64,000 bases of DNA. Origin: a phage. The notes below the pieces were generated by a model. The model did not search any database, was not told the origin of the DNA, and worked only from the letters and a program-made list of their open reading frames with translations. This document shows, piece by piece, positions 1 through 64,000 of the stretch; the first letter of the stretch is position 1; every line of letters starts with the position of its first letter. The DNA is taken from the sequence record PZ445488.1; one strand, written 5' to 3'. The position numbers and the translations under genes were made by a program.

Positions 1-699
1 AACATAATCAAAATCACGTTCAAACACATGGGCACTTACCATGGTATGAGTATAATCACCAACTTCTACACCGCATTCGTTAGCGATATAATGAAGTAAT
101 TTTCCTTGGAGATAAAAATCCAACTGCATAACAACAGCACAGTTCTGAGAACGCATATGACAGTGGGTATAAAGCTTACCATCACGAATATAATAAGTTA
201 CTGAGTCAGTACATGGATATTCAAGTGTTTCGTCCGAATCAAGCAAAGCCTGATCAGAACTTTCTAGAATTTGGAACACAACTCTTCGAGAGTTAGGTTT
301 TTCTTTAAGTTCTTTTAGAAGAGTTGGTAATTGGGCCGCAATGCGAGGACCATAGAAAGTGTTGAAGTTCGCCGGCAAAACATCTGATTTTGGTTTAGAA
401 ATAAATTTAGCGACATTAGGATATGCCTTAAACGCTTCTTCTGCGTTGGTACCACCAGAAATCATAAACTTCCAGAAGTCTTCGGCATATTCATAAGAGA
501 TGCGGTTAATACGTGGGTCGGTCATTTTGAATGATGATGGAGTGTCAACAACTACTGTCATAGACCCAATTTCATTACAACGTCCAATACGAGAATCAGT
601 TACGAATTCCGGGTTTTCTAAAATTTCACGATTGACTGCTTTAAATGCGGTTTGAAAATCTGCGGCTTTGATATATTTCATTGTGTTATGTTTTCCCAT
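1..699 (-). CDS. 42: dNMP hydroxymethylase-family protein (thymidylate-synthase fold; gp42-like), 3' end beyond window
   Basis: Minus-strand ORF from ATG 697-699 (GAGG about 5 nt upstream) running off the window start, so absent from the ORF track. Translation MGKHNTMKYIKAADF...PCTDSVTYYIRDGKLYTHCHMRSQN...GDYTHTMVSAHVFERDFDYV matches TS/dCMP-hydroxymethylase motifs. Confidence 0.6.
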   Translation of the reverse strand, partial: MGKHNTMKYIKAADFQTAFKAVNREILENPEFVTDSRIGRCNEIGSMTVVVDTPSSFKMTDPRINRISYEYAEDFWKFMISGGTNAEEAFKAYPNVAKFISKPKSDVLPANFNTFYGPRIAAQLPTLLKELKEKPNSRRVVFQILESSDQALLDSDETLEYPCTDSVTYYIRDGKLYTHCHMRSQNCAVVMQLDFYLQGKLLHYIANECGVEVGDYTHTMVSAHVFERDFDYV

Positions 700-741
700 G
701 TTTACCTCAATACAATTTATTATATACTCAATTCATAAAGC

Positions 742-981
742 TTATTTGAATTTCTTGGCAATGTTGATATAACGTAAAGCTTCAGAATCTATACTTCCAA
801 GAACACTATGAAGAAATGCATCAGCGTAGTATTCCAATTGAACAGGTTCTTTAATCACTTTAGCCGCTTTGGTTTCAAACAGGCCCATCAGGGCCTTTTT
901 AAGAATTTGTTCGTTAGTGTTCAGTTTCATAGTCAAAATCTCTTCGTTAAGTTTATAATTAAAACTTTTTCTAGAAATCAT
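742..981 (-). CDS. hypothetical protein (79 aa)
   Basis: ORF track; lies between the gp42-like gene and the U32 gene; no motif recognised; not membrane-like, so not an obvious Imm. Confidence 0.4.
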   Translation of the reverse strand: MISRKSFNYKLNEEILTMKLNTNEQILKKALMGLFETKAAKVIKEPVQLEYYADAFLHSVLGSIDSEALRYINIAKKFK

Positions 982-2138
982 TCCGGGTACCTCAAAGCGT
1001 CATCAGAGCTAGTTATATCAATAATAGATATGGAGTTTTCTGCTAACCCGTTTTTAGATAATTGACGTTTATAATATCTTTCACAATATGTACACGTCGT
1101 CCCGCAGATTTCATTAGCACAATCGAAATCTGGATGTCTGAACCACCTTTTTTCTAAAAAGCCATCTAACAAAGAGGTTTCAATATTTACTGTATGTGAA
1201 AACTCAGTTTCGTTTTCAAGAGTGAAAATAGTCTCTAAAGGCTTCCACAGTTCTAACAAATTACCTTCAAACTTTTCAGAAGCGTATGCTTCAAGAACTT
1301 TCAAAATGTAGTCTGTGCTACCTGTACGTCCTGAAACTTTGAATTGAGTGATACCAATATCATTATAAAGTTTCAAATCTTGAGGACGAACAAAACGAGT
1401 TCTCAGCCAGTTAAATGGGTCTGTATCACGAGCTTTAATACAGTGTTGCATTGGATATCCATTTAAGGATTTAGCATCATCAGCGGTAACATCAGTACTA
1501 TGGAAAATATAGCAAGAGTCACGATAGCTACAATGTGTTGTATACCCTTTACCAGCATTAGAACAGAACTCATTTACAAGAACTTCAAATATTATATTGT
1601 TCTTATTGCAAAACTCTGCTGCACGCTTCAGGAAAGAAACTGAACGGTTCTTATGAATTCCGCAGCAGACCTTTTTGATATTATATTGGTCATGCAAGTA
1701 TTTGATTTGAGTTACAGCATCGACATGTAGAATTGTTGAAACTTCAATCTCAATATCTTTATTGACTTCACGAACAATTTCCATAACAACAGGGTTAGCG
1801 ATAGTAATACGCCATACGCCTATTGACCAAAGATACTGAACATAATCCTGAATAGCTTTCTTCTTCCACTCAACTAGTTCTCTTTTTGAACCAGGATTTA
1901 TCGTGTTGAGTGTATAGTTAAAGCAAATACCTAATTCGTTACAACGTTTAACGTAATCTTCTAACATCTTTTTGTCAACGTCAGGAAGCCTAAAATCAGG
2001 TCTGGCTGCTACAAAAGCCATTTCTCTTGTAGAGCCGTATACTTCGTTTATCAAGCTATTAGGATAAGTTTTATTGAGCTCTACGATTTTATCAAGAAGA
2101 GCTAAATCAAAATTCGTTCCGATTTTAAAAGTATTCAT
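978..2138 (-). CDS. peptidase-U32-family protein (Fe-S, TrhP/RlhA/UbiU-like putative hydroxylase fold)
   Basis: 386 aa; ATG at 2138. Segments ANPVVMEIVREV, IFEVLVNEFCSNAGKGYTTHC and GITQFKVSGRTGS parallel U32 blocks (SDPGLIMLVRE, ELEIFVHGALC.AYSGRC, GVHSLKIEGRTKS); Cys-rich C-terminus CANEICGTTCTYC. Confidence 0.6.
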   Translation of the reverse strand: MNTFKIGTNFDLALLDKIVELNKTYPNSLINEVYGSTREMAFVAARPDFRLPDVDKKMLEDYVKRCNELGICFNYTLNTINPGSKRELVEWKKKAIQDYVQYLWSIGVWRITIANPVVMEIVREVNKDIEIEVSTILHVDAVTQIKYLHDQYNIKKVCCGIHKNRSVSFLKRAAEFCNKNNIIFEVLVNEFCSNAGKGYTTHCSYRDSCYIFHSTDVTADDAKSLNGYPMQHCIKARDTDPFNWLRTRFVRPQDLKLYNDIGITQFKVSGRTGSTDYILKVLEAYASEKFEGNLLELWKPLETIFTLENETEFSHTVNIETSLLDGFLEKRWFRHPDFDCANEICGTTCTYCERYYKRQLSKNGLAENSISIIDITSSDDALRYPE

Positions 2139-2195
2139 TTTTTTTGCATCTCACGTTAATTGATGCGATGGTTTTTGCAGGTCTTACTTAAATTA

Positions 2196-2597
2196 TTATA
2201 GATTAGGTTTATATGATTTAAATGTTTCGAATTCGCCTTTATTCATAAGAGCTTTGAATTCGTCAGGACGCATAGCTTTGTCGTCGATAATCCAATCATA
2301 TACTGGTTTATGTGTTAGCAAATTATGGTACTTCAAGCCAATGTTTGCCAAGTTCTGAATCAGACTTGGGAGAATGTCAATTGCTATACGACCAGGACCT
2401 ACTGACTTCATACCACGAGCCGTGTAAAGCGTTATGGTATGCCCTGCATCATACAGGGCATTAATGGCAGACACCATTTCGACGTCTGGTTTGAAGTTCA
2501 CGTAATCACGATTGTTATTCCATTCCGTGATGCAATCATCGATATCAAAACAAAGATTAAGCATGTTTTCTACATGGTGCATTAGATTCGTTCCCAT
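2196..2597 (-). CDS. HAD-superfamily phosphatase (sugar-phosphate phosphatase candidate)
   Basis: 133 aa; HAD motif I FDIDDCIT and TARG motif; ATG at 2597 or 2582 (ATGA-type overlap with upstream stop). Confidence 0.6.
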   Translation of the reverse strand: MGTNLMHHVENMLNLCFDIDDCITEWNNNRDYVNFKPDVEMVSAINALYDAGHTITLYTARGMKSVGPGRIAIDILPSLIQNLANIGLKYHNLLTHKPVYDWIIDDKAMRPDEFKALMNKGEFETFKSYKPNL

Positions 2598-4270
2598 TGA
2601 TGAGTGATATCGCCACCGATTGGACGATAGGAAACACCAGTTTCTTTATCAGTTAGTACCCATTTACCAGGATTTTTTGTAATCAGAGTAGCCGTTACAG
2701 GTTCTGCTACGTCATAACTAATAGAGCCGTCTTGAAGTACACGGCCCATGTTATGTAATTGCTTAGTCAGAAGTTCCATACCTTTATAATATGCGGCCAC
2801 CGCTTTAAGTGGATTATTCTTGAAATAACCACCTAATGCAATCCAGATAATTGCTACTGCCAAATGATGATACTCATTAAACGAACTCATCTTTCCATAT
2901 TTGTAAACTAATGGATTGATGTTAATAGTCACATTACAAGTTGTTTCATCAATAGTAAACTGACCCCAGGTCGGATTAGCATTGAATTCATCATAACCTG
3001 AAACAGCATAAAGCACTTTAGCTTCATCGTACAATTTTGGCCCGTAAATCTTGGTTTCACCAAAATATCCACGAGGGTCGATAAACTTGACTTCACCATT
3101 ATCAGTAATCATAGTATTACTGAAGTTCGGGTCGCCGTGAATAACAGAGTACTGTCCCTGAGAACGGTTATGATAACGAATAAGATGTTCTAAAGCTTGT
3201 TTCAACATTGGCTTCAGACGTCCAATCTTAGTGTAGTTCACGTGTGTGATTTTACCAAATGAATCAATCAATGGCTGAATGCTTTCACAACGATCAATAA
3301 CTTTCGTATAGAACTCTTTAGTGAAATCACGGCGAACAGTTTCAGGACTTACAAAATAAGTGTCTGTGCTGAATTTCAGTGCATCTAAAATTGCATCAAC
3401 AATTTGTGGACGAGCAAGACTTGATTTGGATTTAATATATTCAAATGCCGGCTTACCTTTAATGCGTTCCATAATAAAGTGGCCGCCAGGATGATAACTT
3501 ACAATCCGTGGAACTGAATCTGATTTAACTTTCTTATACCAATTGACTTCATCTTTTTGAAGTGCAACGCCCTGTTCTGTTAAAGCAATCTTTGTTACCG
3601 TTTCTTCGCCAATTTCAACTGCATTAAAACTACGATTAAGTTCACGAACTTCATGAGCTTTTTCAAGTTTAGGCATATCACCTAAATCAATTAGATTCAT
3701 AAGCTCTGATTTATTGAATGCACTACCGTAAAGGAATTCTACGAAATCACGTCCTTTGCAGTATTCGTGAATTTCCTCATCAGTAGAACCCATGTAGAAT
3801 TCCCAGTCTTTGAACTGATAAATTCCTACAACATTACCACCTGTTGAACCTACGTTAGTGATATTTTCACCATCGAAATTATATCGACATTCATCACCCT
3901 TAACATAGATTGCGTTAACATTCCAAGACCATGAACCAAAGTCAGGAATAATATCACACCAGTTAACAATTACGTTATGGCCATCTAAATCTTTGTATAA
4001 TTTAGCAAGAGCATAAGCAGAACCATACGCTTCATCAACTGTACGAATAGTCACATTGAACCCTTCTTGCTCGCAATAAGCTCGAACAGTTTCAGCAAAT
4101 TTTGAATGAACTACTACAATAATTTCATCTGCGCCAAGGTCAGAATAAATTGTATACAAATTGCTCAGAATAGTGTCTTGTTTATAGTTAACAAGCACCT
4201 TAGGAATATGGTGCGTTATTGGATACAAACGAGTTGCCAGTCCAGCACCAAGAATAACAGCTTTTTTCAT
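2582..4270 (-). CDS. bifunctional sugar-1-phosphate nucleotidyltransferase (N-term, RmlA/LicC/MurU-like) and anomeric sugar kinase (C-term, APH/choline-kinase fold)
   Basis: 562 aa; N-term KAVILGAGLATRLYPIT (GxGTRLxPxT pyrophosphorylase motif); C-term VIHGDPNFSNTMI...FIDPRGYFG (APH-type catalytic loop and DFG-like motif); ATG at 4270 with GAGGA RBS. Confidence 0.7.
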   Translation of the reverse strand: MKKAVILGAGLATRLYPITHHIPKVLVNYKQDTILSNLYTIYSDLGADEIIVVVHSKFAETVRAYCEQEGFNVTIRTVDEAYGSAYALAKLYKDLDGHNVIVNWCDIIPDFGSWSWNVNAIYVKGDECRYNFDGENITNVGSTGGNVVGIYQFKDWEFYMGSTDEEIHEYCKGRDFVEFLYGSAFNKSELMNLIDLGDMPKLEKAHEVRELNRSFNAVEIGEETVTKIALTEQGVALQKDEVNWYKKVKSDSVPRIVSYHPGGHFIMERIKGKPAFEYIKSKSSLARPQIVDAILDALKFSTDTYFVSPETVRRDFTKEFYTKVIDRCESIQPLIDSFGKITHVNYTKIGRLKPMLKQALEHLIRYHNRSQGQYSVIHGDPNFSNTMITDNGEVKFIDPRGYFGETKIYGPKLYDEAKVLYAVSGYDEFNANPTWGQFTIDETTCNVTININPLVYKYGKMSSFNEYHHLAVAIIWIALGGYFKNNPLKAVAAYYKGMELLTKQLHNMGRVLQDGSISYDVAEPVTATLITKNPGKWVLTDKETGVSYRPIGGDITHQWERI

Positions 4271-4311
4271 GTTGTGGTCCTCATTGGTAAGTAGGTGTAT
4301 TGTACACTATT

Positions 4312-4455
4312 CTAGTTAAAGCATTCATACTTTGCTTGTAGTCCAATCATAATCCATCCGATTATAAGAGTCGGAATCATTACTGGAGCCGTTAAGCTCC
4401 AGTAGATAGTCATGACAAGCATCAATAGTAAAAGTCCTATTGTTATTGCTTTCAT
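4312..4455 (-). CDS. small hydrophobic protein (47 aa, 2 predicted TM segments)
   Basis: Hand-translated MKAITIGLLLMLVMTIYWSLTAPVMIPTLIIGWIMIGLQAKYECFN; its ATG overlaps the stop of the SIS gene (ATGA); below the ORF-track size cutoff. Confidence 0.35.
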   Translation of the reverse strand: MKAITIGLLLLMLVMTIYWSLTAPVMIPTLIIGWIMIGLQAKYECFN

Positions 4456-5087
4456 TGTTCGCCTCGTAACATGGCACCTAGTGCACCACCAGGGTGGAAC
4501 TTAAGGAAGTCATTAGAGGTAAATCCGCGTTCAGACGAAAGGTTGATAGCGAACGTATCGATAAGCGCTAACAACAATGTAGTGGACATTGTAGGAGCCA
4601 GAGAATTCTCATCAACCTCTACCGCGATACCGGTACAGAATGTATAATCAAAAAGAGCTTCGTATTCTTGTGGAATGTCCGGGTTACAATGCAACAGAAT
4701 CTGTTTGACATTTGGACGAATCATTTTAAGATGCTTAGCCACGCCTATCATTTCTTCAGTCTTACCAGAACGACTAATATGAATCAACACATCATTAGGC
4801 GCAATGAATCCTGCATCACCGTGAGAATAATGCCCAGTGTTCAAGTACATACTCGGGATACCGAGCGAAGCAAATGTCTCAGAAGCTTTAGTTGCAATAT
4901 TAGCATTCTTACCAACACCTGTAATAATTACTCGGCTTTCATAATTACTAAGTCCAGGGCGTCGAAGAGTTTCTAGAATAGCATTATAACGAGCAGGGTT
5001 TTGACTAATTACTTTGGCCATAGCGGCCAAAGAAGAAGCTTGTTTTATGATTGCGTCAATAGCGATAGTAATAGGAGTAGTTTTCAT
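4452..5087 (-). CDS. SIS-domain sugar-phosphate isomerase, KdsD/GutQ-type (arabinose-5-phosphate isomerase-like), no CBS domains
   Basis: 211 aa; VIITGVGKNANIATKASETFASLGIPS...HISRSGKTEE...LAPTMSTTLLLALIDTF...FHPGGALG aligns block-by-block with the KdsD SIS domain; ATG at 5087. Confidence 0.7.
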   Translation of the reverse strand: MKTTPITIAIDAIIKQASSLAAMAKVISQNPARYNAILETLRRPGLSNYESRVIITGVGKNANIATKASETFASLGIPSMYLNTGHYSHGDAGFIAPNDVLIHISRSGKTEEMIGVAKHLKMIRPNVKQILLHCNPDIPQEYEALFDYTFCTGIAVEVDENSLAPTMSTTLLLALIDTFAINLSSERGFTSNDFLKFHPGGALGAMLRGEQ

Positions 5088-5127
5088 ATTTCTCTCATTT
5101 AATTAGTTTACCGTCCATGACATTATA

Positions 5128-7839
5128 TCAAAAATCGAACATATCGAACAGAGATGCTTTCTTCTCGTAATCGAGTTTCGCTGCTGATGTGAATCCTTCA
5201 AGTGGTTTAATAAATGTCTTCTCAAGGAGAACAGTGTAGTCCATCCAATGAAGTACGTCGTCTTTAATTAAATCTGTGATTTCAGTACCAGAAGGCCATG
5301 CGATACATTTATCACCGAATGGGTTTCCATCACGTAAAGGCAGAACGTATACCTTTTCGCCTTCTACAACTTGTGGAGCATCAATATTACCTTTGATAGC
5401 TCTGTTATATGTCAGAATTCCACGAATATGGAACGGGCATTTAGGACCAGGGAATCCACCAACGTCATATTTAGCAATGTTATTCGCAGAAGATACCGAC
5501 GCGATGCTAATATAATTCAATTGACGGAATTCTTTTTCAAACTCTTTAAAATATTCTTGTAATGATTCTTCACCTTCTTGAAGCATACGACGAATACATT
5601 CTTTAAGAGCTTTCTGTACTGCTTTAGGGGTCGAAGATTTCTGTGTTTCGAGACCCATGATTTTGAGTTTAGGCTCAGCGTATCTGGTTCCTTCCATATC
5701 CCACACGTTTAATGCATAACGTTTCTTACCAGTCCAGAATCCACCAATACCTTTAGAACCGAGTGGAGGACCAGCAATAGCTTCTCGGTCCATGAACATC
5801 AAATGTTGCTTATTATTCATGTATTCACACATTTCACGGAAACCTCTATCAATAGCCGGTTCCATACGTTCACGAGCAAACTTATCTAAGAAGTCTACCC
5901 AATGGTTGGTATCACGGAATTTAGATTCACCAACCTTATCGATAATTTTATCAGCAGATACGTAAATAGAGTCTGTATCACCATAAAGAACGAAAGCTTC
6001 ACCTTCTGTACCACAAACTTCATTCAGATATTCATTAACTTTACGTTCAATCCACTGTAAAGCCATTTGCCCGAATGTTGTGATTGCAGTAGCATTACGC
6101 AAATCATAATAACGGAACCAAACGTTACCAAGTGCACCATAAAGCGAGTTGATGAGCAATTTACGGTTAATTTGTGCAGTCATACCTGCAACTTCAGTAC
6201 GTTGAGCTCTAAACAACATTTCATTAAGAGATTTAGCAGACAACTTTTTAATCTTTTCTTTAATCTCGTCAGTGAAGTCGAAACGATAATCAACATCTAA
6301 TGGTTCGTCAACAGAAAGATTAGGATTATGTAACGCCTCTTTAATTATTTCACCATTACGTTGAGCCGCAAGCATATAACCTTTATGTTCTTTACGTTGA
6401 TTAAAGACCTTAGTGATTTCAGTTGGAACTACACCATCACGGTCTTTATAATACATCATGCCGTTAGGAGAGCAACTGTACACATCTGAAGGACGTTCAG
6501 CGATTGCGTTAATATAATCATGCAATGGAGCTACTTTAAACGTTCCTGCTATTGTTTCTGGGCTAATATTCACTTGGCGAATAATACTTGGATACAGAGA
6601 TGTAAGGTCGAAACTCATTACATATTTGTATCGATTTGGAATAGGTTCCTTAACAAAAGCGCCAGGATAAGGTTGAACCGGGTGAGAACGACCTTGTGGA
6701 ATCACCTTGTTCTGCTCTTTAAGGCTATTAAAAATAATAGCATCCCATGTTTTAATTGGGCTGAACACAGATTGAATCTGTATCTTAGCATAATAACCCA
6801 TGTCCAAACTCAAGTTGATGAACTGGCGCTTAGCATCAATTTGCAATACACGATACACGTCGATAATGTTATAAGAAATATATCGTTGGTGATTGCTTTC
6901 ACGAAGCTTAGAAATAGGGCCGTCATATTTCAGTTTACCGACATTCAATTCAAATTCTGAAATGTAATCCAGAGAATACGACGGTTGGTTTGTGAAAGAG
7001 AATTTTTTGTAAAGGTCAATGTAATCAAGAACAGAAATACCGAACAATGTAATGATTTCACGAGAACCATACATGTTTTCGATAACTTTAACACGAGTTT
7101 TACGATGTGGTGATAAACGTTTCGCAGTAGATTCGCCAAAAATATTCTTGATTCGGTTATACACATATGGAATATCAAATGACTCAACGTTCCATCCGGT
7201 TAAAATGACAGGAGTTTTCTGTTGCCAGAAGTTGAGATATTCCATCAACAATTCTTTTTCGTTATCGAACGGCATATAAATGATTTTATCGATAATTTCG
7301 GATGGAACTTCATCACCACCTTGTTCTTGAAGCTTAGCCGCAATTTCGATAGACCATTCTTCTACATTACCATATGGAGAATTCAAAAGGTCGAATACGT
7401 AGAACCTGTCGTCAATTGAGTCATAATGGGTGATAGCATCAATCGGATGTTTTGCTTGTGACGGCTCAGGGAACCCATCCGGAGATGTTACTTCGATATC
7501 GAAGTTAGCCACACGAATTTTTGTATGGTCGTATTTGATTTCATAGTTATAAGTGTCAGACAAATACGACAATTTGAAATCGTCCATACCTAATGCTTCA
7601 AGACCGATATCTTCCATGCGTTTAATCCATTGGGAGGCATCACGCATATTAGCGAACAACTTACGAGTACACGGCTTACCGTAGATATCGAAATATTTCG
7701 TAGCCTGACTTTCTGGACAATGAGCAAACAATGATGGTTTATATTCTACTTCACGAGTACGTTCACGGCCATTAGAATCGATGTAACGTTCAAAAATTGA
7801 ATCACCAATCTGTTCAACCGTTAAGTAAAATTCTTTCAT
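5128..7839 (-). CDS. 43: DNA polymerase gp43 (family B, with 3'-5' exonuclease)
   Basis: 903 aa; N-terminus MKEFYLTVEQIGDSIFERYIDSNGRE and motifs YGDTDS and KILLNSLYG-like match the T4/RB69 polymerase (RB69 gp43 is 903 aa, from memory); ATG at 7839. Confidence 0.97.
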   Translation of the reverse strand: MKEFYLTVEQIGDSIFERYIDSNGRERTREVEYKPSLFAHCPESQATKYFDIYGKPCTRKLFANMRDASQWIKRMEDIGLEALGMDDFKLSYLSDTYNYEIKYDHTKIRVANFDIEVTSPDGFPEPSQAKHPIDAITHYDSIDDRFYVFDLLNSPYGNVEEWSIEIAAKLQEQGGDEVPSEIIDKIIYMPFDNEKELLMEYLNFWQQKTPVILTGWNVESFDIPYVYNRIKNIFGESTAKRLSPHRKTRVKVIENMYGSREIITLFGISVLDYIDLYKKFSFTNQPSYSLDYISEFELNVGKLKYDGPISKLRESNHQRYISYNIIDVYRVLQIDAKRQFINLSLDMGYYAKIQIQSVFSPIKTWDAIIFNSLKEQNKVIPQGRSHPVQPYPGAFVKEPIPNRYKYVMSFDLTSLYPSIIRQVNISPETIAGTFKVAPLHDYINAIAERPSDVYSCSPNGMMYYKDRDGVVPTEITKVFNQRKEHKGYMLAAQRNGEIIKEALHNPNLSVDEPLDVDYRFDFTDEIKEKIKKLSAKSLNEMLFRAQRTEVAGMTAQINRKLLINSLYGALGNVWFRYYDLRNATAITTFGQMALQWIERKVNEYLNEVCGTEGEAFVLYGDTDSIYVSADKIIDKVGESKFRDTNHWVDFLDKFARERMEPAIDRGFREMCEYMNNKQHLMFMDREAIAGPPLGSKGIGGFWTGKKRYALNVWDMEGTRYAEPKLKIMGLETQKSSTPKAVQKALKECIRRMLQEGEESLQEYFKEFEKEFRQLNYISIASVSSANNIAKYDVGGFPGPKCPFHIRGILTYNRAIKGNIDAPQVVEGEKVYVLPLRDGNPFGDKCIAWPSGTEITDLIKDDVLHWMDYTVLLEKTFIKPLEGFTSAAKLDYEKKASLFDMFDF

Positions 7840-11052: not shown

Positions 11053-11253
11053 TTATTCGTAGAAGTCAGTAACTGTCCATGCGGAATTGCGATTAGACAT
11101 TATTTTATTATACTCATCTTTAAAAGCAGATTTGAGCATTTGTTCAGTAACAATATGTTCTTCACCTGAAAACGTATTGGTCAAAACATATTTTTTAATT
11201 TCAGGGACAACGAGAAGATGTTGTCCGGTTGAATACTCCATGTTGTTCTCCAT
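11053..11253 (-). CDS. hypothetical protein (66 aa; T4 45.2 position)
   Basis: ORF track; ATG at 11253; compact early array. Confidence 0.5.
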   Translation of the reverse strand: MENNMEYSTGQHLLVVPEIKKYVLTNTFSGEEHIVTEQMLKSAFKDEYNKIMSNRNSAWTVTDFYE

Positions 11254-11260
11254 TTAATTT

Positions 11261-11294
11261 GATGTGGTCATTATAACCACATCGTGTTAAAGCG
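11261..11294 (-). promoter_or_regulatory. candidate MotA-dependent middle promoter (MotA-box-like CGCTTTA, 12-bp spacer, TATAAT) with the -10 in the loop of an 8-bp palindrome
   Basis: Minus strand reads aaCGCTTTAacacgatgtggtTATAATgaccacatc; palindrome GATGTGGT/ACCACATC; sits directly upstream of the 11253 start. Confidence 0.4.
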
Positions 11295-11295
11295 T

Positions 11296-12984
11296 TTATG
11301 AAACAGTCATTACCGTAAATCGTCCAACTTTGCTCATCTGAAGATGTTGTCCATAACGTTGAGGGTCATGGTCTCGATGAGAGATAATGAACACATTAGT
11401 ATTTTGTAAACTTCCAAGAATGGTATCTATAGCCTTAACAGCCTCAGAATCGACAGCACCATCAAAAACCTCATCAAGAATCAGAGTGTTGATTTTAACG
11501 CCAGAGACCTTTTCAGCAATATCTCGCCATGTAAACAACAATGCGATATCGATACGTGCCTTTTCACCTTGACTAAATGAAGCATAACTGAACTCTTCAC
11601 GGCCACGTGATTTTATAGATTCATTGAATTCTTCGTCAATAGAAAACACGTAATCAGCTTCCATGATTTTAAGATAGTGGTTAATCTGCTTGTTGAACAG
11701 AGGCACATATTTTTTAATGATAGCACCTTTAATACCAGAATCTTTTAACATATCTGTGATAATACCACGATGGTATTTTTCAAGAACGATATCCGATTTT
11801 GTTTTAATGATTTTATCAAGTTCTTTTTGAAGCAAAGCTATCTCATCGGCGTGGTCGATAAATTCCGCCGAGGCTTGCTCTATTGCAGCTTTAACTTTCT
11901 TAGCTTTATCAATAGTGGCAATCATTGCTTGTTTCTTGGTACGGATATCGGATGCAAGGTCCTGTTTAGTCTTAACATTAGCTCGATATTCGTCCACTAG
12001 GACACTCAGATTATCTCTGTGGCAGGTAAGTTGCTCGAATGAGTGATTACATTCATGAAGCTTATCGGTAATCTTAGAGACAATAGGGTCACCCTGGTGC
12101 AACTGTGATGCGCAAGTAGGACATGTACCGCCATCATGATACATCTTAATAACTTTGTTATATGAGTCAATTTTAGATTTAATCAAGAATGCTTCTTGTC
12201 CGATCTTGTTGAATGCCTCAGTAGGGTCTTCGTCAAGAACGATATTAAGTAGACGCTCGTTAGCTTCTTCAATTTCTGCTTTTAATGAACGAGCTTCTTT
12301 GGCTAGGTCGTCATACATATTCTGTAGACGCGCTACATTATCGCCAGATAATTTCTTTTGACGTTCGATATTCTCGTTATAAATCTTAATTTGTTGGATA
12401 ATACCATCTTTCTTGGCATCGAGAACTTGTCCCTGGGAATTAAGTTCTCGAACTTGAGACTTATTGATTTTATCCATTTCAGCTAGTGTTCCAACTTCTA
12501 ATAAGTCTTCAACAAGCTTTCTGCGAGCAGGGGTGCTAAGAGCCATGAAAGGGGTATACCCTGCCGTCCCAAGCACAACGATCTGTTTAAAAGACGCGTA
12601 TGACATTCTGATGCTACGTTCAAATTCTTCTTGGAAGTCACGACTGCTGGCAGATTCATCAAGACGAACACCGTCAACGGAGATTTCGAAAATATTAGGC
12701 TTTTGGCCTCGTTTAATGAAGTATTTTTTATCATCGAATTCCATCCAAAGCTCAACTAAGAGCTCTTTCTTGTTCGTGCTATTAATGATTTGTCCTTTCT
12801 TAACATCACGAAATGGTTTACCGAAAAGTCCGAAAGTAATGGCTTCTAACATCGTAGATTTACCACCGCCATTTTTACCAGTGATTAATGTCTTTTGGAC
12901 TTTATCTAATTGGATATCAATAGGATTCCCACCTACCGACATGATGTTTTGATAACGAACACGATTTAATTTAAATGATTTCAT
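11296..12984 (-). CDS. 46: recombination endonuclease subunit gp46 (SbcC/Rad50-like ATPase)
   Basis: 562 aa; N-terminal Walker A ITGKNGGGKST, coiled-coil middle with CxxC hook (CPTCAS), C-terminal signature and Walker B; ATG at 12984. Confidence 0.92.
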   Translation of the reverse strand: MKSFKLNRVRYQNIMSVGGNPIDIQLDKVQKTLITGKNGGGKSTMLEAITFGLFGKPFRDVKKGQIINSTNKKELLVELWMEFDDKKYFIKRGQKPNIFEISVDGVRLDESASSRDFQEEFERSIRMSYASFKQIVVLGTAGYTPFMALSTPARRKLVEDLLEVGTLAEMDKINKSQVRELNSQGQVLDAKKDGIIQQIKIYNENIERQKKLSGDNVARLQNMYDDLAKEARSLKAEIEEANERLLNIVLDEDPTEAFNKIGQEAFLIKSKIDSYNKVIKMYHDGGTCPTCASQLHQGDPIVSKITDKLHECNHSFEQLTCHRDNLSVLVDEYRANVKTKQDLASDIRTKKQAMIATIDKAKKVKAAIEQASAEFIDHADEIALLQKELDKIIKTKSDIVLEKYHRGIITDMLKDSGIKGAIIKKYVPLFNKQINHYLKIMEADYVFSIDEEFNESIKSRGREEFSYASFSQGEKARIDIALLFTWRDIAEKVSGVKINTLILDEVFDGAVDSEAVKAIDTILGSLQNTNVFIISHRDHDPQRYGQHLQMSKVGRFTVMTVS

Positions 12985-16097: not shown

Positions 16098-16367
16098 CTA
16101 TCGGAGCAAACAATAAGCCTGAAACACTTTTTCCATTAAACGTTTGAACTCATGTATATCAATATAAAGCTCAGTAAGACCGGCATTATAAAGAAAATCT
16201 AAAAAGTTCTCATGTGTTTCGTTATAGTCGCCTTCATTTAATTGAGATACATGAGTTTCCCAAAAACCAACACCTTTAACGAATGGAAAATACGTGACTT
16301 TCATGTATTCGTCAACATAAAATTCGCCCAGCTTTTCTTCAGTTATACTGATTCGAGTTAATTTCAT
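16098..16367 (-). CDS. hypothetical protein (89 aa)
   Basis: ORF track; ATG at 16367. Confidence 0.5.
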   Translation of the reverse strand: MKLTRISITEEKLGEFYVDEYMKVTYFPFVKGVGFWETHVSQLNEGDYNETHENFLDFLYNAGLTELYIDIHEFKRLMEKVFQAYCLLR

Positions 16368-16591
16368 TCTAGTTCCTTTGCTGCTTCAAGAGCAGCATCA
16401 AGCGAATCAAATTGGTCAACGAAATCAATATTCAACGCATCGTCAACCGTAGCATATAGCCACCATTGTTTAAATTCATATTCTAGAATAAATCCAGGAC
16501 CTTCGATCTGAGGAAGACCTAGACTATTTGTACCAACTTCGTAACCAGCTAGACGCAGATCATTAATCAAAGTTTCTGTTAGTACGCTCAT
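16364..16591 (-). CDS. hypothetical protein (75 aa, acidic)
   Basis: ORF track; ATG at 16591. Confidence 0.5.
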   Translation of the reverse strand: MSVLTETLINDLRLAGYEVGTNSLGLPQIEGPGFILEYEFKQWWLYATVDDALNIDFVDQFDSLDAALEAAKELE

Positions 16592-16920
16592 TTTACCGCC
16601 TTAACAATTTTCAAGTCAGCGAATTTTTTCTTACGTTGATTTTTCATACGACGGATAGTTTTTTCAGAGATTTCATGTTTCTGATAAGCTTTAGATTCAA
16701 CACCAAATGCAGCAACGTCAAATTCAGAAAGAATATATTGTACTAGAATTTCGCGAATAGAATTACGTCCAATTTTCTGGTCGTGTTTTTGCATGATTTC
16801 ATAAAGACGGAATTCCCACGCGTCAAGAACTTGAGGAGTAACAATACCACCTTTTTCTAGAAGACTAACAACTTTATCGAAAGCGAAAGAGTTCACTACG
16901 TTTTTGATTTTAGTAGACAT
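16588..16920 (-). CDS. hypothetical protein (110 aa)
   Basis: Start placed at ATG 16920 (AGAGGA RBS); the upstream ATG 16959 lies inside the promoter -10. Confidence 0.5.
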   Translation of the reverse strand: MSTKIKNVVNSFAFDKVVSLLEKGGIVTPQVLDAWEFRLYEIMQKHDQKIGRNSIREILVQYILSEFDVAAFGVESKAYQKHEISEKTIRRMKNQRKKKFADLKIVKAVK

Positions 16921-16939
16921 ATTATTTTCCTCTGTTATT

Positions 16940-16983
16940 TTATTATCCAACGAGAGCATTATACTCTGCTCTCAAGAGTTTGT
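16940..16983. repeat. 44-bp exact repeat, copy A (identical to 46351..46394)
   Basis: ttattatccaacgagagcattatactctgctctcaagagtttgt occurs identically about 29.4 kb away; contains TATAAT between inverted GAGAGC/GCTCTC. Confidence 0.85.
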
Positions 16984-16986
16984 GCG
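16958..16986 (-). promoter_or_regulatory. promoter-like element (TATAAT -10; degenerate -35 CGCACA) within repeat copy A
   Basis: Same -10 and spacer as the 46369..46397 promoter, but the -35 TTTACA is replaced. Confidence 0.3.
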
Positions 16987-17226
16987 TTATTTCGTGATAA
17001 GATAATGTAAATAGTTTGCTTGACGAACACTGATATCAACACCCATATCAAAGATACCTTTATAGAACGGGTATTTGTTTTCAGTAGAATCTAGACTAAA
17101 AGCCTTTCCGCCACAACTAACGGTAATAGCATCAGTTAAAGTGTCATATGCAAACTTAATAGTTGAGCCGTTCACTACGACTTCAAGACGTTTTTTCGAT
17201 GTAATAATGTCTAATTCTTGTTCCAT
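16987..17226 (-). CDS. hypothetical protein (79 aa)
   Basis: ORF track; ATG at 17226 with GAGGAAAA RBS. Confidence 0.5.
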   Translation of the reverse strand: MEQELDIITSKKRLEVVVNGSTIKFAYDTLTDAITVSCGGKAFSLDSTENKYPFYKGIFDMGVDISVRQANYLHYLITK

Positions 17227-19458: not shown

Positions 19459-19929
19459 TTAATCATGTTTCCACACCCCATCGGTATTTGACCAAAGTCG
19501 CTGATTATCTGATCCTCGCCACAGCTTTTTGGTCGGAAGATTTTTCTCATACTTCCCATCAATAATAACATCAACATATTTAAGCATTTCTAGCTGTTTA
19601 ATATCTTCAAACTTATATCCTGTCCACAACCAAATGCTTTTATTGGGATAAAGATTTTTTACTGTTTGAACAATGTAATGAATAACATCTCGGTTATCAG
19701 GATAGAGAGGGTCTCCTCCGGTTATAGTTAATCCTTCTATATAATCATTATTCAAACATTCAATTAATTGTTCTAGTGTTTCACCAGTGAATGGAATACC
19801 ATTTCTAGCGTTCCATGTTGATTTATTATAACACCCTTCGCATTTATGCAAACAACCTGTAACGAAAAGAACGACCCTACAACCAGGGCCATTCACAAAA
19901 TCGCAAGGATAAAATCTATCATAATTCAT
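19459..19929 (-). CDS. nrdG: anaerobic ribonucleotide reductase activating protein NrdG (radical SAM)
   Basis: 156 aa; Cys-rich N-terminus (CDFVNGPGCR, CLHKCEGC); same length as T4 NrdG. Confidence 0.9.
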   Translation of the reverse strand: MNYDRFYPCDFVNGPGCRVVLFVTGCLHKCEGCYNKSTWNARNGIPFTGETLEQLIECLNNDYIEGLTITGGDPLYPDNRDVIHYIVQTVKNLYPNKSIWLWTGYKFEDIKQLEMLKYVDVIIDGKYEKNLPTKKLWRGSDNQRLWSNTDGVWKHD

Positions 19930-21743
19930 TGGTGTTTAACCCTATGCATGATTTCTTTATTTTTACCGAGATTAAATCCGCGTTCGTTCGGATTTCCAAG
20001 ATAACCGCATGTTCTTCTTATGGTGTTCATCTTTTTAGGATCAGTTTCTCCACAAACTGAACAAACAAATCCGTTTTCAGTAGGAGTCATTTCATGGGTA
20101 CTTCCACACGTAAAACATTTATCTACTGGCATATTAACACCAAAATAATCTAAATGTTGTGCAGCATAATCCCACACAGCCTCAAGACCTTTTAGGTTAT
20201 TTTTCATATCAGGAAGTTCAACATAAGAAATGTGACCACCTGTCGCAATGAAATGATATGGCGCTTCACGAGAAATCTTTTCAAACGGAGTAATATTTTC
20301 TTCTACTGAAACATGGAAACTATTAGTGTACCAGCCTTTATCAGTGACATCCTTTACACTTCCATATTTTTCTGTATCAAGTTTACAGAAACGATAACAC
20401 AAGTTTTCAGCAGGAGTAGAATATAAACTAAAAGCAAATCCAGTTCTTTCAGTCCACTGTTTAAGATGAGCATTCATTTTAGTTAAAATTTCTTGTCCAA
20501 TATCACGACCAACAAGAATATTCAATTCATGAATACCAATATATCCTAAAGACACTGAACTTCTACCGTTTTTAAATAACTCAATTATATCATCGTCGGG
20601 TTTAAGACGAACACCAAATGCACCTTCTTGGTAAAGAATAGGAGCAACAGTAGCTTTAACTCCTTTTAAGGAACTAATTCTACACATCAAGGCTTCAAAG
20701 CACAGATCCATTCGTTCATTAAATAACTCAACAAATTTCTGTTCATTGAACTGTGTTCCAATATAAGAATCTAACGCGATGCGAGGAAGATTCAGTGTTA
20801 CAACACCGAGATTATTACGTCCATCAAGAATTTCATTACCAGTCGAATCTTTCCATACACTCAAGAAACTACGGCAGCCCATTGGAGAAACAGGAATAGA
20901 TGAGCCGGTGATAGCTTTATTATTCTTAACAGAAATAATGTCAGGATACATTCTTTTGCTTGCACACTCTAGAGCGAGTTGCTTAATATCATAGTTCGGA
21001 TCGTCTTTATAAAGATTAACACCCTCTTCGACAAACATAACAAGTTTAGGGAAAATAGGAGTTATTCCATCACGACCAAGACCTTTAATCCGATTTTTCA
21101 GAATTGCTTTCTGAATCATTCGTTCGGTCCAATCAGTTCCAGTACCAAATGTAATTGTTACAAAAGGCGTTTGCCCGTTTGAACTAAAAAGAGTATTTAC
21201 CTCATACTCATAAGCTTGAAATGCGTCATATACATCTTTTTCTGTTTTAGATTGAGCATAATTCAGAATGTCTGGTATTTGCCATTTTTCTGCATCTTCA
21301 ACATGTTTAGCGTATGTACGTTTAACATAAGGAGAAAGAACTTTATCGACATTCGCAAATGTAGTTCCGCCGTACTGATGTGAAGCAACTTGTGCAGTAA
21401 TTTGTGCCATAATTGCAGTAGCAACACCAATCGATTTAGGCGTTTCAATTTGAGCATTGCCCAATTTAAATCCGTTCTCAAGCATCCCCTTTAAATCGAC
21501 TAAACAGCAATTGGTAAACGGAAGAGCAGGAGAATAATCAATATCATGCATGTGGATAATTCCACTTTCATGCGCATTCATAATAAAAGACGGGACCATA
21601 TTTTTGGCAATGTGCTTAGACACAATACCAGCCATAAGGTCCCGTTGAGTTGGAAAAACACGAGAATCTTTATTAGCATTCTCGTTCAAAAGATCTTTAT
21701 TAGTTTTATAAATTAATCCTTCAATTTCTTTTTCAATTTTCAT
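19926..21743 (-). CDS. nrdD: anaerobic ribonucleoside-triphosphate reductase NrdD
   Basis: 605 aa; C-terminal Cys cluster (CFTCGSTHE...CSVCG) and glycyl-radical motif RTCGYLG. Confidence 0.95.
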   Translation of the reverse strand: MKIEKEIEGLIYKTNKDLLNENANKDSRVFPTQRDLMAGIVSKHIAKNMVPSFIMNAHESGIIHMHDIDYSPALPFTNCCLVDLKGMLENGFKLGNAQIETPKSIGVATAIMAQITAQVASHQYGGTTFANVDKVLSPYVKRTYAKHVEDAEKWQIPDILNYAQSKTEKDVYDAFQAYEYEVNTLFSSNGQTPFVTITFGTGTDWTERMIQKAILKNRIKGLGRDGITPIFPKLVMFVEEGVNLYKDDPNYDIKQLALECASKRMYPDIISVKNNKAITGSSIPVSPMGCRSFLSVWKDSTGNEILDGRNNLGVVTLNLPRIALDSYIGTQFNEQKFVELFNERMDLCFEALMCRISSLKGVKATVAPILYQEGAFGVRLKPDDDIIELFKNGRSSVSLGYIGIHELNILVGRDIGQEILTKMNAHLKQWTERTGFAFSLYSTPAENLCYRFCKLDTEKYGSVKDVTDKGWYTNSFHVSVEENITPFEKISREAPYHFIATGGHISYVELPDMKNNLKGLEAVWDYAAQHLDYFGVNMPVDKCFTCGSTHEMTPTENGFVCSVCGETDPKKMNTIRRTCGYLGNPNERGFNLGKNKEIMHRVKHQ

Positions 21744-36594: not shown

Positions 36595-36808
36595 AAGGAA
36601 TTTCCTCATCGGTGGCAAGGTCATATTCGACCAATTGGATAGGCTCATTAATACCATATCCACGTACAATGATATCAGTTGTCGGATAGTTTCCAGTAAT
36701 ATCACCCATTCTAAATGCTTCAGTGAATGATTGCTCGCCAGAGCAACTAAACCAGGCGGCAAAACATTTTAAAACATCTTCAGACCCTTCTATAATCAAT
36801 TTAGCCAT
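36584..36808 (-). CDS. hypothetical protein (74 aa)
   Basis: ORF track; start abuts the GrcA-like stop. Confidence 0.45.
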   Translation of the reverse strand: MAKLIIEGSEDVLKCFAAWFSCSGEQSFTEAFRMGDITGNYPTTDIIVRGYGINEPIQLVEYDLATDEEIPYVD

Positions 36809-37170
36809 TATAGGCTCTCAGTAAAGGTACGAGCGATAACGTCGCGCTGCTGTTCCGGAGTCAGAGAGTTAAAGCGAACTGCATAACCGGATACACGGAT
36901 GGTCAGCTGAGGATATTTTTCCGGATGCTTAACTGCATCTTCCAGAGTTTCGCGACGCAGAACGTTAACGTTCAGGTGTTGACCACCTTCAATTTTAACT
37001 TTAGGTTGATGTTCAATTTCAATTTCACGGGCATTCAAACCGTAGAAAATTTCCGGGTCTACAATAGCGTCTTCTTTAAAAGTCTTAGAGACAATAATCC
37101 GGGCTTGAGTACCGTCTTCAAAATAAATAGTGCCTTTGTGTGTGCCTTCAAGAATTTGATATGCTTTCAT
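36808..37170 (-). CDS. grcA: autonomous glycyl-radical cofactor (GrcA/YfiD-like; T4 Y06I-type)
   Basis: 120 aa; glycyl-radical motif RVSGYAVRF; the C-terminal about 60 aa ([59 protein letters not shown]) match E. coli GrcA as I remember it. Confidence 0.85.
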
Positions 37171-51705: not shown

Positions 51706-52440
51706 TTACCTTAAGATTGTTTCAATTTTAGAATAAAGCTCTTCTAAAGAGCCGTCGTTTGTAATAACTAAATCGCCTTCTTCAATAGGCAACCCAGCTT
51801 CTGTAATATGTTTATCGGTGGATTCCGTACCAGAGCGAACCACATGAATAACTGTAGCACCCATCGCTCTAGCGGTTTCCATTTCATGGACTTGGCGTGT
51901 ATCGGTTACAACATAGTAATCGAAATCACTTCCAATATAATCCATATAATTTAATGCAAAAAGTTTAACCCAATACATACGGTCAAATAAATTAACGACA
52001 ACATCCGTACCGAGGGCTTGCATAAGACGGCGGATTGACCATGTGTCGTTGATATTATTTATAGCTTCACGCAGGGCTTCATATGGTTTAATATCTAGAT
52101 ATGAATATCCACCTTCTAACGATGATAATACTTTAACATTATTAATTGGTAAATATTGACTTTGTAAATAAATTAGCGCTTCTTCCAATAATTCAATAAC
52201 ATCCAACTTATTGAGATTTAATGGTGTTTCACGGTCATATCCAACACCTTCAAAGTATTCGTATTTCAACTCGGTGAATACGTTGGGGTTTTCAGCATGT
52301 TTACGCTCCCAGGCTATTGCTAGAGCGTCTTTAATTGGATATGCCAATTGGTATTTTACGGATTTAAAGTTTGAATTGATGTAATCAGCAGTAGTGTCTT
52401 TACCACTACGTTTGATGCCACTTAAAAAGATTAGCTCCAT
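51706..52440 (-). CDS. 1: deoxynucleoside monophosphate kinase gp1
   Basis: 244 aa; P-loop GIKRSGKDT; synteny 57A-1-3-2-4. Confidence 0.85.
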   Translation of the reverse strand: MELIFLSGIKRSGKDTTADYINSNFKSVKYQLAYPIKDALAIAWERKHAENPNVFTELKYEYFEGVGYDRETPLNLNKLDVIELLEEALIYLQSQYLPINNVKVLSSLEGGYSYLDIKPYEALREAINNINDTWSIRRLMQALGTDVVVNLFDRMYWVKLFALNYMDYIGSDFDYYVVTDTRQVHEMETARAMGATVIHVVRSGTESTDKHITEAGLPIEEGDLVITNDGSLEELYSKIETILR

Positions 52441-57708: not shown

Positions 57709-58216
57709 TATACTTCCTTTAAATACCGACTTAGGAGAAGACATGGAAGGGGCGTCTATTGACGTCCTTTTTACTCCACAGTTAGAAACAACCGAAACTT
57801 TAGTGTCAATAAATATAACAGATTATGAACCGACACAAGGCATTACGGTGGACGGTAATCGTTTATATGGAACATATGAAAGTGTGTTTAGCTTTTCTTC
57901 TGATGCATTGAAATACCGATTAAATGATGATTTTGAAACCGCATCTTCATGGGATGATTTACCAAAAGATGAGTCAACACAGTTATATTTGTGGAGAGCT
58001 CCTCAGAATCTTCGTAAAGTGTTTAGTTATACGGTTGAAATGATTTATAACCACCAAGAAGAAAGTTCATCAGGCGGTTCTAGAAGTGACTCTGGTACAG
58101 AACCTCCACCGGCTCCAGTACAAAAAACTCTTACTAAGGTTTATACAAAAACTATAGTAGGAAATTGGAGCAAATGGGCTCATCAATTACGAAACTATGT
58201 TTATGTGAGGCCGTGA
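57701..58216 (+). CDS. hypothetical late protein (gp5.1 position)
   Basis: ORF track; between the seg-like ORFs and PAAR gp5.4. Confidence 0.5.
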
Positions 58217-58218
58217 AA

Positions 58219-58512
58219 ATGTCTGGTTTAAGTTACGACAAGTGCGTTACAACAGGTCATGAAGCATGGCCTCCTACTGTAATAAATGCTTCCCAATCTA
58301 AAGTGTTCACCGGCGGTATTCCTGTTCTTGTGGCAGGAGACCAAATAACACCTCATACAGAAATTAAAAAACCATACGAGACTCATGGAGGTGTTACTGA
58401 ACCTCGTACATCTAAAGTATACATCACCGGTAAAAAGGCCGTTCAAATGGCTGATCCAATTTCATGCGGTGATACTGTTTCTCAGGCCTCGTCAAAAGTC
58501 TTTATAAAATAG
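58219..58512 (+). CDS. 5.4: PAAR-repeat spike-tip protein gp5.4
   Basis: From ATG 58219: [14 protein letters not shown]...; 97 aa as in T4 gp5.4; the track start 58165 is TTG. Confidence 0.8.
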
Positions 58513-58520
58513 GAATTAAA

Positions 58521-63586: not shown

Positions 63587-64000
63587 TTCAAGTGTTGTCT
63601 ATCGTTCGATAGTTACTTCAAAATTTAGAACTGAAAAAATGTTGAATTTCTACAATTCAATAGGTGATGGTGATAATAAAAACACCATCTTTATAACGTT
63701 TGGTCGGTCTGAACCATGGGCTGCTAATGAAAATGAGGTGGGCTTCGCCCCGCCGTATCCAACAGACTCGGTTTTAGGCGTAACAGATATGTGGACTAAC
63801 ATGATGGGTTTAGTTAAAGTTATCCCATCTATGTTAGACTCGGTTATTCCTAGACGTGACTGGGGAGATATTCGTTATCCAGACCCTTATACATTCAAAA
63901 TAAATGATATAGTCGTATGTAATACAGCCCCTTATAATGCTACTGAAGTCGGTGCCGGGTGGTTAGTATATCGTTGCGTAGATGTTCCTGATGTTGGGAT
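63579..64000 (+). CDS. 8: baseplate wedge protein gp8 (5' part; continues beyond window)
   Basis: ATG at 63579 overlaps the gp7 stop (ATGAATGA); MNDSSVVYRSIVTSKFRTEKMLNFYNSIGDGDNK...; not in the ORF track because it has no stop in the window. Confidence 0.85.
   Translation, partial: MNDSSVVYRSIVTSKFRTEKMLNFYNSIGDGDNKNTIFITFGRSEPWAANENEVGFAPPYPTDSVLGVTDMWTNMMGLVKVIPSMLDSVIPRRDWGDIRYPDPYTFKINDIVVCNTAPYNATEVGAGWLVYRCVDVPDVG

Follow-up and report, generated by a model that had tools for sequence, protein, structure and literature searches.

A thymidylate synthase-fold gene in a Mosigvirus DNA arabinosylation cluster very probably encodes a dCMP 5-hydroxylase and lies near a U32-family gene for a candidate oxygen-independent counterpart

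Introduction

Phages that modify deoxycytidylate (dCMP) before replication have been found to use enzymes with a thymidylate synthase (TS) fold. T4 gp42 (PDB 1B49, 1B5D, 1B5E, and 6A9A) uses methylenetetrahydrofolate and forms a 5-CH2OH product, whereas enzymes of the type of AfhB from phage HY126 and gp48 from phage RB69 use flavin and O2 and form a 5-OH product. Here we describe a gene of this fold that occupies positions 1..699 on the minus strand of a 64,000-nucleotide stretch of phage DNA (sequence record PZ445488.1; the whole stretch is called the window below), together with a nearby U32-family gene at 978..2138. An earlier note on this DNA, made from the sequence alone, had described the first gene as a dCMP hydroxymethylase diverged from T4 gp42.

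The biochemistry of the hydroxylating type is taken here from Lee et al. (NAR 2026; PMC13326640), who report that RB69 gp48, expressed together with the phage deoxynucleoside monophosphate (dNMP) kinase, gave rise to 5-hydroxy-dC (5hodC) in Escherichia coli DNA, with a T4 gp42 control giving 5-hydroxymethyl-dC (5hmdC). According to the same account, 18O2 labeling added 2 Da, so that the hydroxyl oxygen comes from O2, a flavin resembling flavin mononucleotide (FMN) copurified with gp48, RB69 gp159 converted 5-hydroxy-dCMP (5hodCMP) to 5hodCDP, and arabinose in RB69 DNA was ether linked directly to C5 without a methylene bridge. That paper also proposes Asn at the position of ThyA D169 (D169N) as a diagnostic for 5hodCMP synthases and credits He et al. 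(Nat Chem Biol 2026) with a flavin-containing crystal structure of the HY126 enzyme and its in vitro reconstitution; the structural facts on HY126 AfhB given below come from PDB titles and from this account of He et al. A separate study, of Mosigvirus NP, likewise found 5-arabinosyl-dC without a methylene bridge and called the older assignment of arabinosyl-hydroxymethyl-C to RB69 erroneous.

The U32 family has been tied to hydroxylation of a different kind. All of its characterized members, namely, RlhA (ho5C2501 in 23S rRNA), TrhP (ho5U34 in tRNA), and UbiU/UbiV (ubiquinone precursors), are linked to O2-independent hydroxylation, the only chemistry known for the family. Prephenate is the oxygen donor, as shown for UbiU/V, and the conserved cysteines bind Fe-S clusters. 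The pairs TrhO/TrhP and UbiI/H/F versus UbiU/V are precedents for O2-dependent and O2-independent routes that exist side by side.

Results and Discussion

The gene at 1..699 is a close ortholog of RB69 gp48 and HY126 AfhB

The open reading frame (ORF) starts with an ATG at 699-697 and is open through the left edge of the window, giving 233 codons that begin with MGKHNTMKYIK. All of the motifs that had led the earlier note to a dCMP hydroxymethylase-type architecture were present in the translation, namely, SRR at residues 137-139, PCTDSVTYYIRD at 162-173, MRSQN at 182-186, and DYTH...HVFERDF at 215-230. That note had taken the visible 233 residues for the N-terminal part of a truncated protein, which is correct as to their number; full-length orthologs in near-identical phage records, however, have 238 residues and end in ...DYVKGFLD, so that only 5 residues (KGFLD) and the stop codon fall to the left of the window. 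With 233 of 238 codons inside, the product is essentially complete.

The predicted TS fold was borne out. In Pfam, the protein scored 55.2 bits (cutoff, 24.3; E=7.7e-15) with the Thymidylat_synt profile PF00303, far beyond chance, and it was assigned to PHROG 160, "thymidylate synthase," while its scores with the NCBIfam TS models were well under their cutoffs (the best was 68.6 bits versus 174.55). It was identical to RB69 gp48 at 230 of 233 positions (98.7%) and to HY126 AfhB at 227 of 233 (97.4%), and it shares with both its length, its gene neighborhood, and the E/C/N/D active-site signature described below. The 3 to 6 differences are conservative substitutions off the active site (positions 17, 31, 85, 87, 107, and 126), and the three proteins do not differ at any active-site position; relative to RB69 gp48, the allele in the window carries N85, V107, and T126. 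On this comparison, no functional difference is expected between the window protein and the two characterized enzymes.

A phmmer search of PDB sequences returned the near-identical chains 9IQC (E=1.3e-156), 9IR2, and 9IQU. We also predicted the structure with AlphaFold2 (AF2) from an alignment of 35 homologs (predicted local distance difference test score [pLDDT], 84) and compared the model with known structures by using Foldseek. The top matches were again 9IQC, on which the model superposes, and 9IQU (97% identity; template modeling [TM] score, 0.93). Both entries were released on 2025-07-16, the former under the title "Monooxygenase dependent on riboflavin with dCMP and FAD" and the latter under the title "phage HY126 dCMP hydroxylase-AfhB with substrate dCMP." They were followed by the CMP hydroxymethylase MilA and then by ordinary thymidylate synthases, and the structures of T4 gp42 were not among the top 50. 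Of the structures solved outside the AfhB clade, that of MilA, the mildiomycin CMP 5-hydroxymethylase (PDB 5JNH and 5B6D), is thus the closest (Foldseek E ~1e-18, TMq 0.83, 22% identity; phmmer E=8.5e-11). Like the window protein, MilA is a TS homolog specific for a cytosine nucleotide, but it is folate dependent, prefers the ribonucleotide, yields a hydroxymethyl product, and is ~320 residues long.

An invariant active-site signature sets the clade apart from folate enzymes

We compared individual residues in an alignment with E. coli ThyA and T4 gp42 and in a 123-sequence alignment that included 120 database homologs (53 to 99% identity). The earlier note had recommended a check of the active-site Cys, Asp, and Glu positions, and all three residues are there: C163 corresponds to the nucleophile (ThyA C146, gp42 C148), D194 to the residue for cytosine (dCMP) specificity (gp42 D179; N177 in ThyA), and E160 to an acidic residue in gp42 (D145) that is L143 in ThyA. 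Two further positions depart from the folate enzymes. N186 stands where ThyA and gp42 have the folate-site Asp (D169 and D171, respectively) and is the published diagnostic for 5hodCMP synthases, and V190, whose codon lies at 130-132, replaces a glycine (ThyA G173, gp42 G175). E160, C163, N186, V190, and D194 were common to all 120 homologs.

Compared with ThyA (EC 2.1.1.45), then, the protein has D194, N186, and E160 for N177, D169, and L143 and scores under the family cutoffs; compared with gp42, it shares the TS fold, the Cys, the cytosine-selecting Asp, and the acidic residue at the ThyA L143 position, and D171 and G175 have become Asn and Val. C163 and D194 would fit a gp42-type enzyme as well, but they are common to AfhB and do not discriminate between the two. 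The window protein shows these marks of the AfhB clade: the TS fold, N186, the C163/D194/E160 set, close orthology to a characterized member, and a location in an arabinosylation cluster.

Val190 is a second invariant departure beside the D169N change, and it is not mentioned in the sections of PMC13326640 that we consulted. It is possibly tied to the switch from folate to flavin.

The enzyme is almost certainly a dCMP 5-hydroxylase

To quantify the divergence from T4 gp42, we used a gp42 sequence whose identity was validated by its match to PDB 1B49 (E=2.6e-170 over residues 1-246). BLASTP gave 24.8% identity over 218 columns (E=3e-13). The earlier note had supposed only partial identity to gp42; the divergence turned out to be much stronger than it suggested and lies far from the >70% identity that it associated with a canonical gp42. 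T4 gp42 itself matched 9IQC only with E ~4e-6, no better than it matched an ordinary ThyA. We found no canonical gp42 elsewhere in the window, and in the complete Mosigvirus genome NC_041863.1 the gp42 query matched only the counterpart of the ORF at 1..699. Since no T4-type gp42 is present in that complete genome, the enzyme fills the gp42 role and is its sole occupant in the Mosigvirus lineage. An E. coli ThyA query of the same genome found a separate, ordinary td gene, 45% identical to ThyA.

We conclude with near certainty that the gene at 1..699 encodes a dCMP 5-hydroxylase (5hodCMP synthase), the ortholog of RB69 gp48 and HY126 AfhB, and not a hydroxymethylase. The product, the origin of its oxygen in O2, the flavin, and the crystal structures were all demonstrated by others on proteins 97 to 99% identical to this one; our own comparisons establish the orthology and gene context of the present gene, its active-site signature, and the lack of a T4-type gp42. 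The label "hydroxymethylase" in the earlier note has to be given up, as the near-identical RB69 gp48 and HY126 AfhB turn dCMP into 5-hydroxy-dCMP with flavin and O2. Its suggestion that a diverged enzyme might have an altered substrate or product was right about the product, which carries 5-OH, and wrong about dUMP, as D194 keeps dCMP as the substrate. Compared with gp42, the substrate is unchanged, and the chemistry and the cofactor are changed. The enzyme type is already known, its structures and biochemistry having been published in 2025-2026, and the window adds another allele.

No feature of the sequence counts against this identification, which has two limits. As the last 5 codons and the stop codon lie outside the window, the 3' end is presumed to be intact as it is in the orthologs, and the particular allele (N85, V107, and T126 versus RB69) is active only by inference from its relatives.

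The view held of RB69 in 2018 would make the protein a diverged but genuine folate-dependent dCMP hydroxymethylase of the gp42 type (EC 2.1.2.8) whose product, 5-hydroxymethyl-dCMP (5hmdCMP), is then arabinosylated. The features shared with gp42 fit it (the TS fold, the catalytic Cys, and the cytosine-specifying Asp), as do the position beside gp43, which gp42 also has, and the annotation of many GenBank orthologs as deoxycytidylate 5-hydroxymethyltransferase. We consider it very improbable, given the identity of only 24.8% to gp42, the replacement of D171 by Asn and of G175 by Val in all 120 clade members, the presence of flavin and not folate in the crystal structures, and the verdict of the Mosigvirus NP study on the earlier hydroxymethylcytosine assignment. 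In the experiments of Lee et al. (PMC13326640), moreover, RB69 gp48, 98.7% identical to the window protein, made 5hodC and not 5hmdC with the gp42 control alongside, and the 18O came from O2.

It is just as improbable that the gene is a decaying or nonfunctional remnant in the present phage. Its 3' end does lie beyond the window, but the 233 codons are uninterrupted, the catalytic residues are all intact, the sequence is 97 to 100% conserved in >150 Mosigvirus records, and the genome offers no other candidate for the source of modified dCMP. Least probable of all is an enzyme acting on dUMP, be it a hydroxymethylase, a hydroxylase, or a second thymidylate synthase; many orthologs are annotated as thymidylate synthase and TS profiles do match, but at the specificity position 120 of 120 homologs share Asp194 with T4 (D179), where ThyA has Asn (N177), the TS scores are far under the NCBIfam cutoffs, the canonical td is a separate gene in the Mosigvirus genome, and the crystal structures contain dCMP.

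Public records label orthologs of this ORF variously as thymidylate synthase, dCMP hydroxymethylase, deoxycytidylate 5-hydroxymethyltransferase, peptidase, or hypothetical protein, and the established hydroxylase function was not used in any ortholog record that we examined. The labels "thymidylate synthase" and "dCMP hydroxymethylase" thus persist for AfhB orthologs, although it is now established that in this type of enzyme the TS fold has exchanged folate one-carbon transfer for flavin/O2 hydroxylation.

The gene lies in a cluster for arabinosylation of DNA

Positions 1-5200 of the window were ~97% identical at the DNA level to >150 genomes of Mosigvirus (RB69-like) phages of Escherichia and Shigella, and the whole window was collinear with NC_041863.1; judged by its sequence, the window is assigned to Mosigvirus. 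On the minus strand, the genes run in the order gp43, arabinose-5-phosphate isomerase, a 47-residue ORF, nucleotidyltransferase/kinase, HAD phosphatase, U32 protein, a 79-residue ORF, and the hydroxylase, which is exactly the order of RB69 genes 56 down to 48. The adjacency of the hydroxylase gene to a sugar-nucleotide module, which had been pointed out before, is therefore borne out. With T4 gp42 the hydroxylase has in common the genomic slot beside gp43 and a pre-replicative modification of dCMP that is followed by glycosylation. An arabinosyltransferase gene would follow directly beyond the left end of the window, and syntenic records place glycosyltransferase and kinase genes just outside it.

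The sugar genes can be assigned one by one. The isomerase (4452..5087; equivalent to RB69 gp55) matched SIS (E=1.7e-10), KpsF/GutQ TIGR00393 (E=2.2e-32), and KdsD (E=1.2e-30). The ORF at 2582..4270 would encode a bifunctional sugar-1-phosphate nucleotidyltransferase and kinase (equivalent to RB69 gp52:53 and HY126 AfhE); it matched PF00483 N-terminally (E=1.5e-9) along with NCBIfam nucleotidyltransferase models, and weak matches to kinase families covered residues 238-410. At 2196..2582 (coordinates taken from the annotation of SHSML-52-1) lies a HAD-type sugar phosphatase of the UDP-arabinose pathway (equivalent to RB69 gp51 and HY126 AfhF) that matched the capsule biosynthesis phosphatase model TIGR01689 (E=3.7e-13). 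The roles of AfhF/gp51 in the UDP-arabinose pathway and of gp52:53/AfhE are described in PMC13326640. The cluster is flanked by the gene for the 903-residue DNA polymerase gp43 (5128..7839), as annotated in syntenic records, and a dNMP kinase gene, orthologous to T4 gene 1 and the RB69 gp159 gene, lies far from it, also on the minus strand (51706..52440; PDB 1DEK, E=2.4e-90).

These genes outline a route to arabinosylated DNA. The enzyme keeps the TS fold but would no longer carry out folate one-carbon chemistry, acting instead as a flavin-dependent monooxygenase. If it follows TS and gp42, Cys163 would attack C6 of dCMP and Asp194 would read the N3/N4 face of cytosine and so select dCMP; a loosely bound reduced flavin would then react with O2 and deliver the hydroxyl to C5, although the details of this mechanism are conjectural. 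The 5-hydroxy-dCMP would be phosphorylated by the phage dNMP kinase and host kinases, and the resulting 5hodCTP would be incorporated by gp43 in place of dC. Finally, the 5-OH on the DNA would be arabinosylated, with UDP-arabinose supplied by the adjoining isomerase, kinase/nucleotidyltransferase, and phosphatase genes. The significance of 5-hydroxycytosine is that it provides the handle for arabinosylated, restriction-resistant phage DNA.

The phage is equipped to replicate without oxygen

NrdD, an anaerobic ribonucleotide reductase, is encoded on the minus strand of the window at 19926-21743 (PF13597, E=2.8e-171), and the radical-SAM activase of NrdD is encoded on the same strand at 19459-19929; a third minus-strand gene, at 36808-37170, specifies a glycyl-radical protein like GrcA. 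These genes equip the phage for replication in the absence of O2, although its cytosine hydroxylase, as published for AfhB, needs O2.

A U32-family protein of a largely phage-borne subfamily

The gene at 978..2138 on the minus strand, in the position of RB69 gp50, encodes a protein of 386 residues that matched PF01136 (E=7.3e-11, 42.2 bits; cutoff, 22.4). A sequence search of the PDB gave no match with it. Its AF2 model (pLDDT, 89.6) has the TIM-barrel U32 fold, with the U32 peptidase Mk0906 (5D88; E=9e-7) as the best PDB match. Eight cysteines, C192, C203, C209, and C233 plus C340, C345, C349, and C352, were invariant in all 74 sequences of the subfamily.

The protein resembles E. coli RlhA, TrhP, UbiU, and UbiV in its PF01136 domain and its U32 fold. 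It is associated with genes for making prephenate, the oxygen donor shown for UbiU/V, and RlhA and TrhP hydroxylate C5 of pyrimidines, the chemistry proposed for it below. It differs from them in belonging to a separate, largely phage-borne subfamily: neither pairwise nor profile comparison showed significant similarity to UbiU, UbiV, TrhP, or RlhA. Its invariant cysteine clusters are possible counterparts of the four-Cys 4Fe-4S motif of UbiU/UbiV, with which they gave no reliable alignment. A table in PMC13326640 lists the gene (gp50) as a "sugar or heterocycle reductase," and the text of that paper does not discuss it. In BASEL, it is annotated as a putative UDP-arabinose enzyme.

The U32 gene travels with prephenate-making genes

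We found the U32 gene in 222 records, all with at least 80% identity, from phages of enterobacteria and Shewanella, which are facultative anaerobes. Eight other genera were sampled, and in every one a gene for a type II chorismate mutase (PF01817, over the cutoff) lies beside it, directly after it in most and separated from it by one or two small ORFs in three. These are Marfavirus, Gualtarvirus, Kanagawavirus, Winklervirus, Bragavirus, Kagamiyamavirus, Tegunavirus, and the Shewanella phage Thanatos-2. The chorismate mutase gene was located at 7158-7403 in locus L003, 4357-4734 in L006, 4158-4397 in L007, 4158-4502 in L008, 4155-4499 in both L009 and L011, 4530-4904 in L010, 4134-4391 in L012, and 3230-3523 in L013. 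In Thanatos-2, whose published description does not discuss either gene, the pair is kept together though it lies away from the TS gene. Chorismate mutase genes occurred in 51 phage records in all, none of them Mosigvirus.

Chorismate mutase makes prephenate. The shikimate pathway begins with DAHP synthase, for which Mosigvirus genomes have a gene beside that for dCMP deaminase, outside the window (16211-17203 in NC_041863.1; locus L023), and the distribution of DAHP synthase genes (213 phage records) mirrors that of the U32 gene.

The association extends beyond these phages. Among 32 distant U32 loci in IMG/VR (37 to 55% identity), in which we scanned 10 kb of neighborhood, none had an AfhB-type or gp42-type gene within that distance, and one had an ordinary ThyA. 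The U32 genes sat in tight same-strand cassettes, either glycosyltransferase-isomerase-nucleotidyltransferase/kinase-U32, glycosyltransferase-U32, or U32-chorismate mutase, and in three loci a fused DAHP synthase/chorismate mutase gene lay directly upstream of U32 (L051:8399-9430, L054:7290-8354, and L055:8323-9384). In ~185,000 species genomes, the subfamily occurred in 11 loci only, mostly on contigs of metagenome-assembled genomes (MAGs), assigned to Erysipelotrichales, Oscillospiraceae, Romboutsia, Gastranaerophilaceae, Tannerella, Phocaeicola, and similar groups. These taxa are obligate anaerobes. The 11 loci had the same cassettes and no TS-fold gene. Further U32 homologs were flanked by genes for dCMP deaminase and DNA polymerase III or were surrounded by genes for deoxynucleotide salvage.

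One metagenomic contig (L018) carried two genes of the U32 subfamily (6001-7098 and 11227-12360), with 5'-deoxyribonucleotidase, deoxynucleoside kinase, nucleoside deoxyribosyltransferase-like, and radical-SAM/SPASM genes as neighbors. It may represent a different nucleotide modification cassette.

AfhB-type genes also occur on their own. At 35 of 51 AfhB-type loci among the viral contigs, there was no U32 gene. Among cultured phages, those of Acinetobacter have AfhB orthologs of ~69% identity without U32. Since Acinetobacter phage DLP3 makes the same arabinosyl-5-hydroxycytosine without a U32 gene (PMC13326640), the arabinose pathway does not need U32. Three configurations thus occur. AfhB without U32 is found mostly in phages of aerobes, U32 without AfhB on contigs and MAGs assigned to anaerobic taxa, and the two together in phages of facultative anaerobes.

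The U32 protein may be an oxygen-independent analog of AfhB

Two analogous enzymes that serve the same step would be distributed in this way, with a parallel in TrhO/TrhP and in UbiI/H/F versus UbiU/V, and we therefore propose the U32 protein as the O2-independent hydroxylase. It would be a putative prephenate-dependent cytosine-C5 hydroxylase acting on dCMP or on DNA, a nonhomologous analog of AfhB, and the phage chorismate mutase and DAHP synthase would supply it with prephenate as the oxygen donor. We regard the proposal as evenly balanced between right and wrong; its link to prephenate is drawn from genomic association. We found no statement of it in the literature covered, which did not extend to the papers of He et al. 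(2026) and of Mahler et al. (Cell Host Microbe, 2025), and it may already be in print. A phage Tn-seq preprint reports proof-of-principle insertions only and holds no essentiality data for Bas46.

Substantial caveats attach to the proposal. For no U32 protein, the E. coli members included, has direct hydroxylase activity been reconstituted in vitro. Dhakavirus phages of E. coli have AfhB without U32, and one of them, QL01, has the TS-like gene and neither U32 nor chorismate mutase; a strict rule by which a facultatively anaerobic host entails a U32 gene was rejected on this account. The Mosigvirus window itself is without a chorismate mutase gene. In the contigs with U32 only, a TS-fold gene could lie >10 kb away.

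Were the proposal correct, the anoxic gut would not keep phages of facultative anaerobes from making DNA with 5-hydroxycytosine, and related phages of strict anaerobes would have U32 as their only hydroxylase. It would then be understandable how gut phages with an anaerobic ribonucleotide reductase modify their DNA fully without O2, and the shikimate pathway genes borne by phages would have a purpose. The poorly understood U32 hydroxylases would also gain a small, soluble, phage-encoded member with a nucleotide-level readout.

Small ORFs of the cluster and a divergent structural region

Between the U32 gene and the hydroxylase gene, a 79-residue ORF (742..981, minus strand; RB69 gp49 position) occupies the slot held by the chorismate mutase gene in other genera. 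It had no Pfam or NCBIfam match and belongs to phrog_8601, a PHROG of unknown function, with homologs in Mosigvirus, Tegunavirus, and Serratia phage 92A1. We considered whether it might be a diverged chorismate mutase and rejected this, as it showed no match to CM_2 and no similarity to phage chorismate mutases; Tegunavirus TG1, moreover, has both a homolog of the ORF and a separate chorismate mutase. No chorismate mutase was detected anywhere in the window by tblastn and profile search. Among Mosigviruses, the ORF is ~88 to 97% identical, versus at least 99% for most U32 copies, and in several records it aligned in two pieces.

The second small ORF of the cluster, between the isomerase and nucleotidyltransferase genes (4312..4455, minus strand; RB69 gp54 position; phrog_3610), encodes a strongly hydrophobic product of 47 residues. 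It is conserved across several genera, with a 144-bp ORF in the same slot in PEi20, CBH8, Kc304, and EcS1.

At the other end of the window, positions 57710-63998, a baseplate gene region by synteny, were ~85% identical to NC_041863.1, compared with 93 to 98% for the remaining window, which suggests a mosaic or exchanged structural module.

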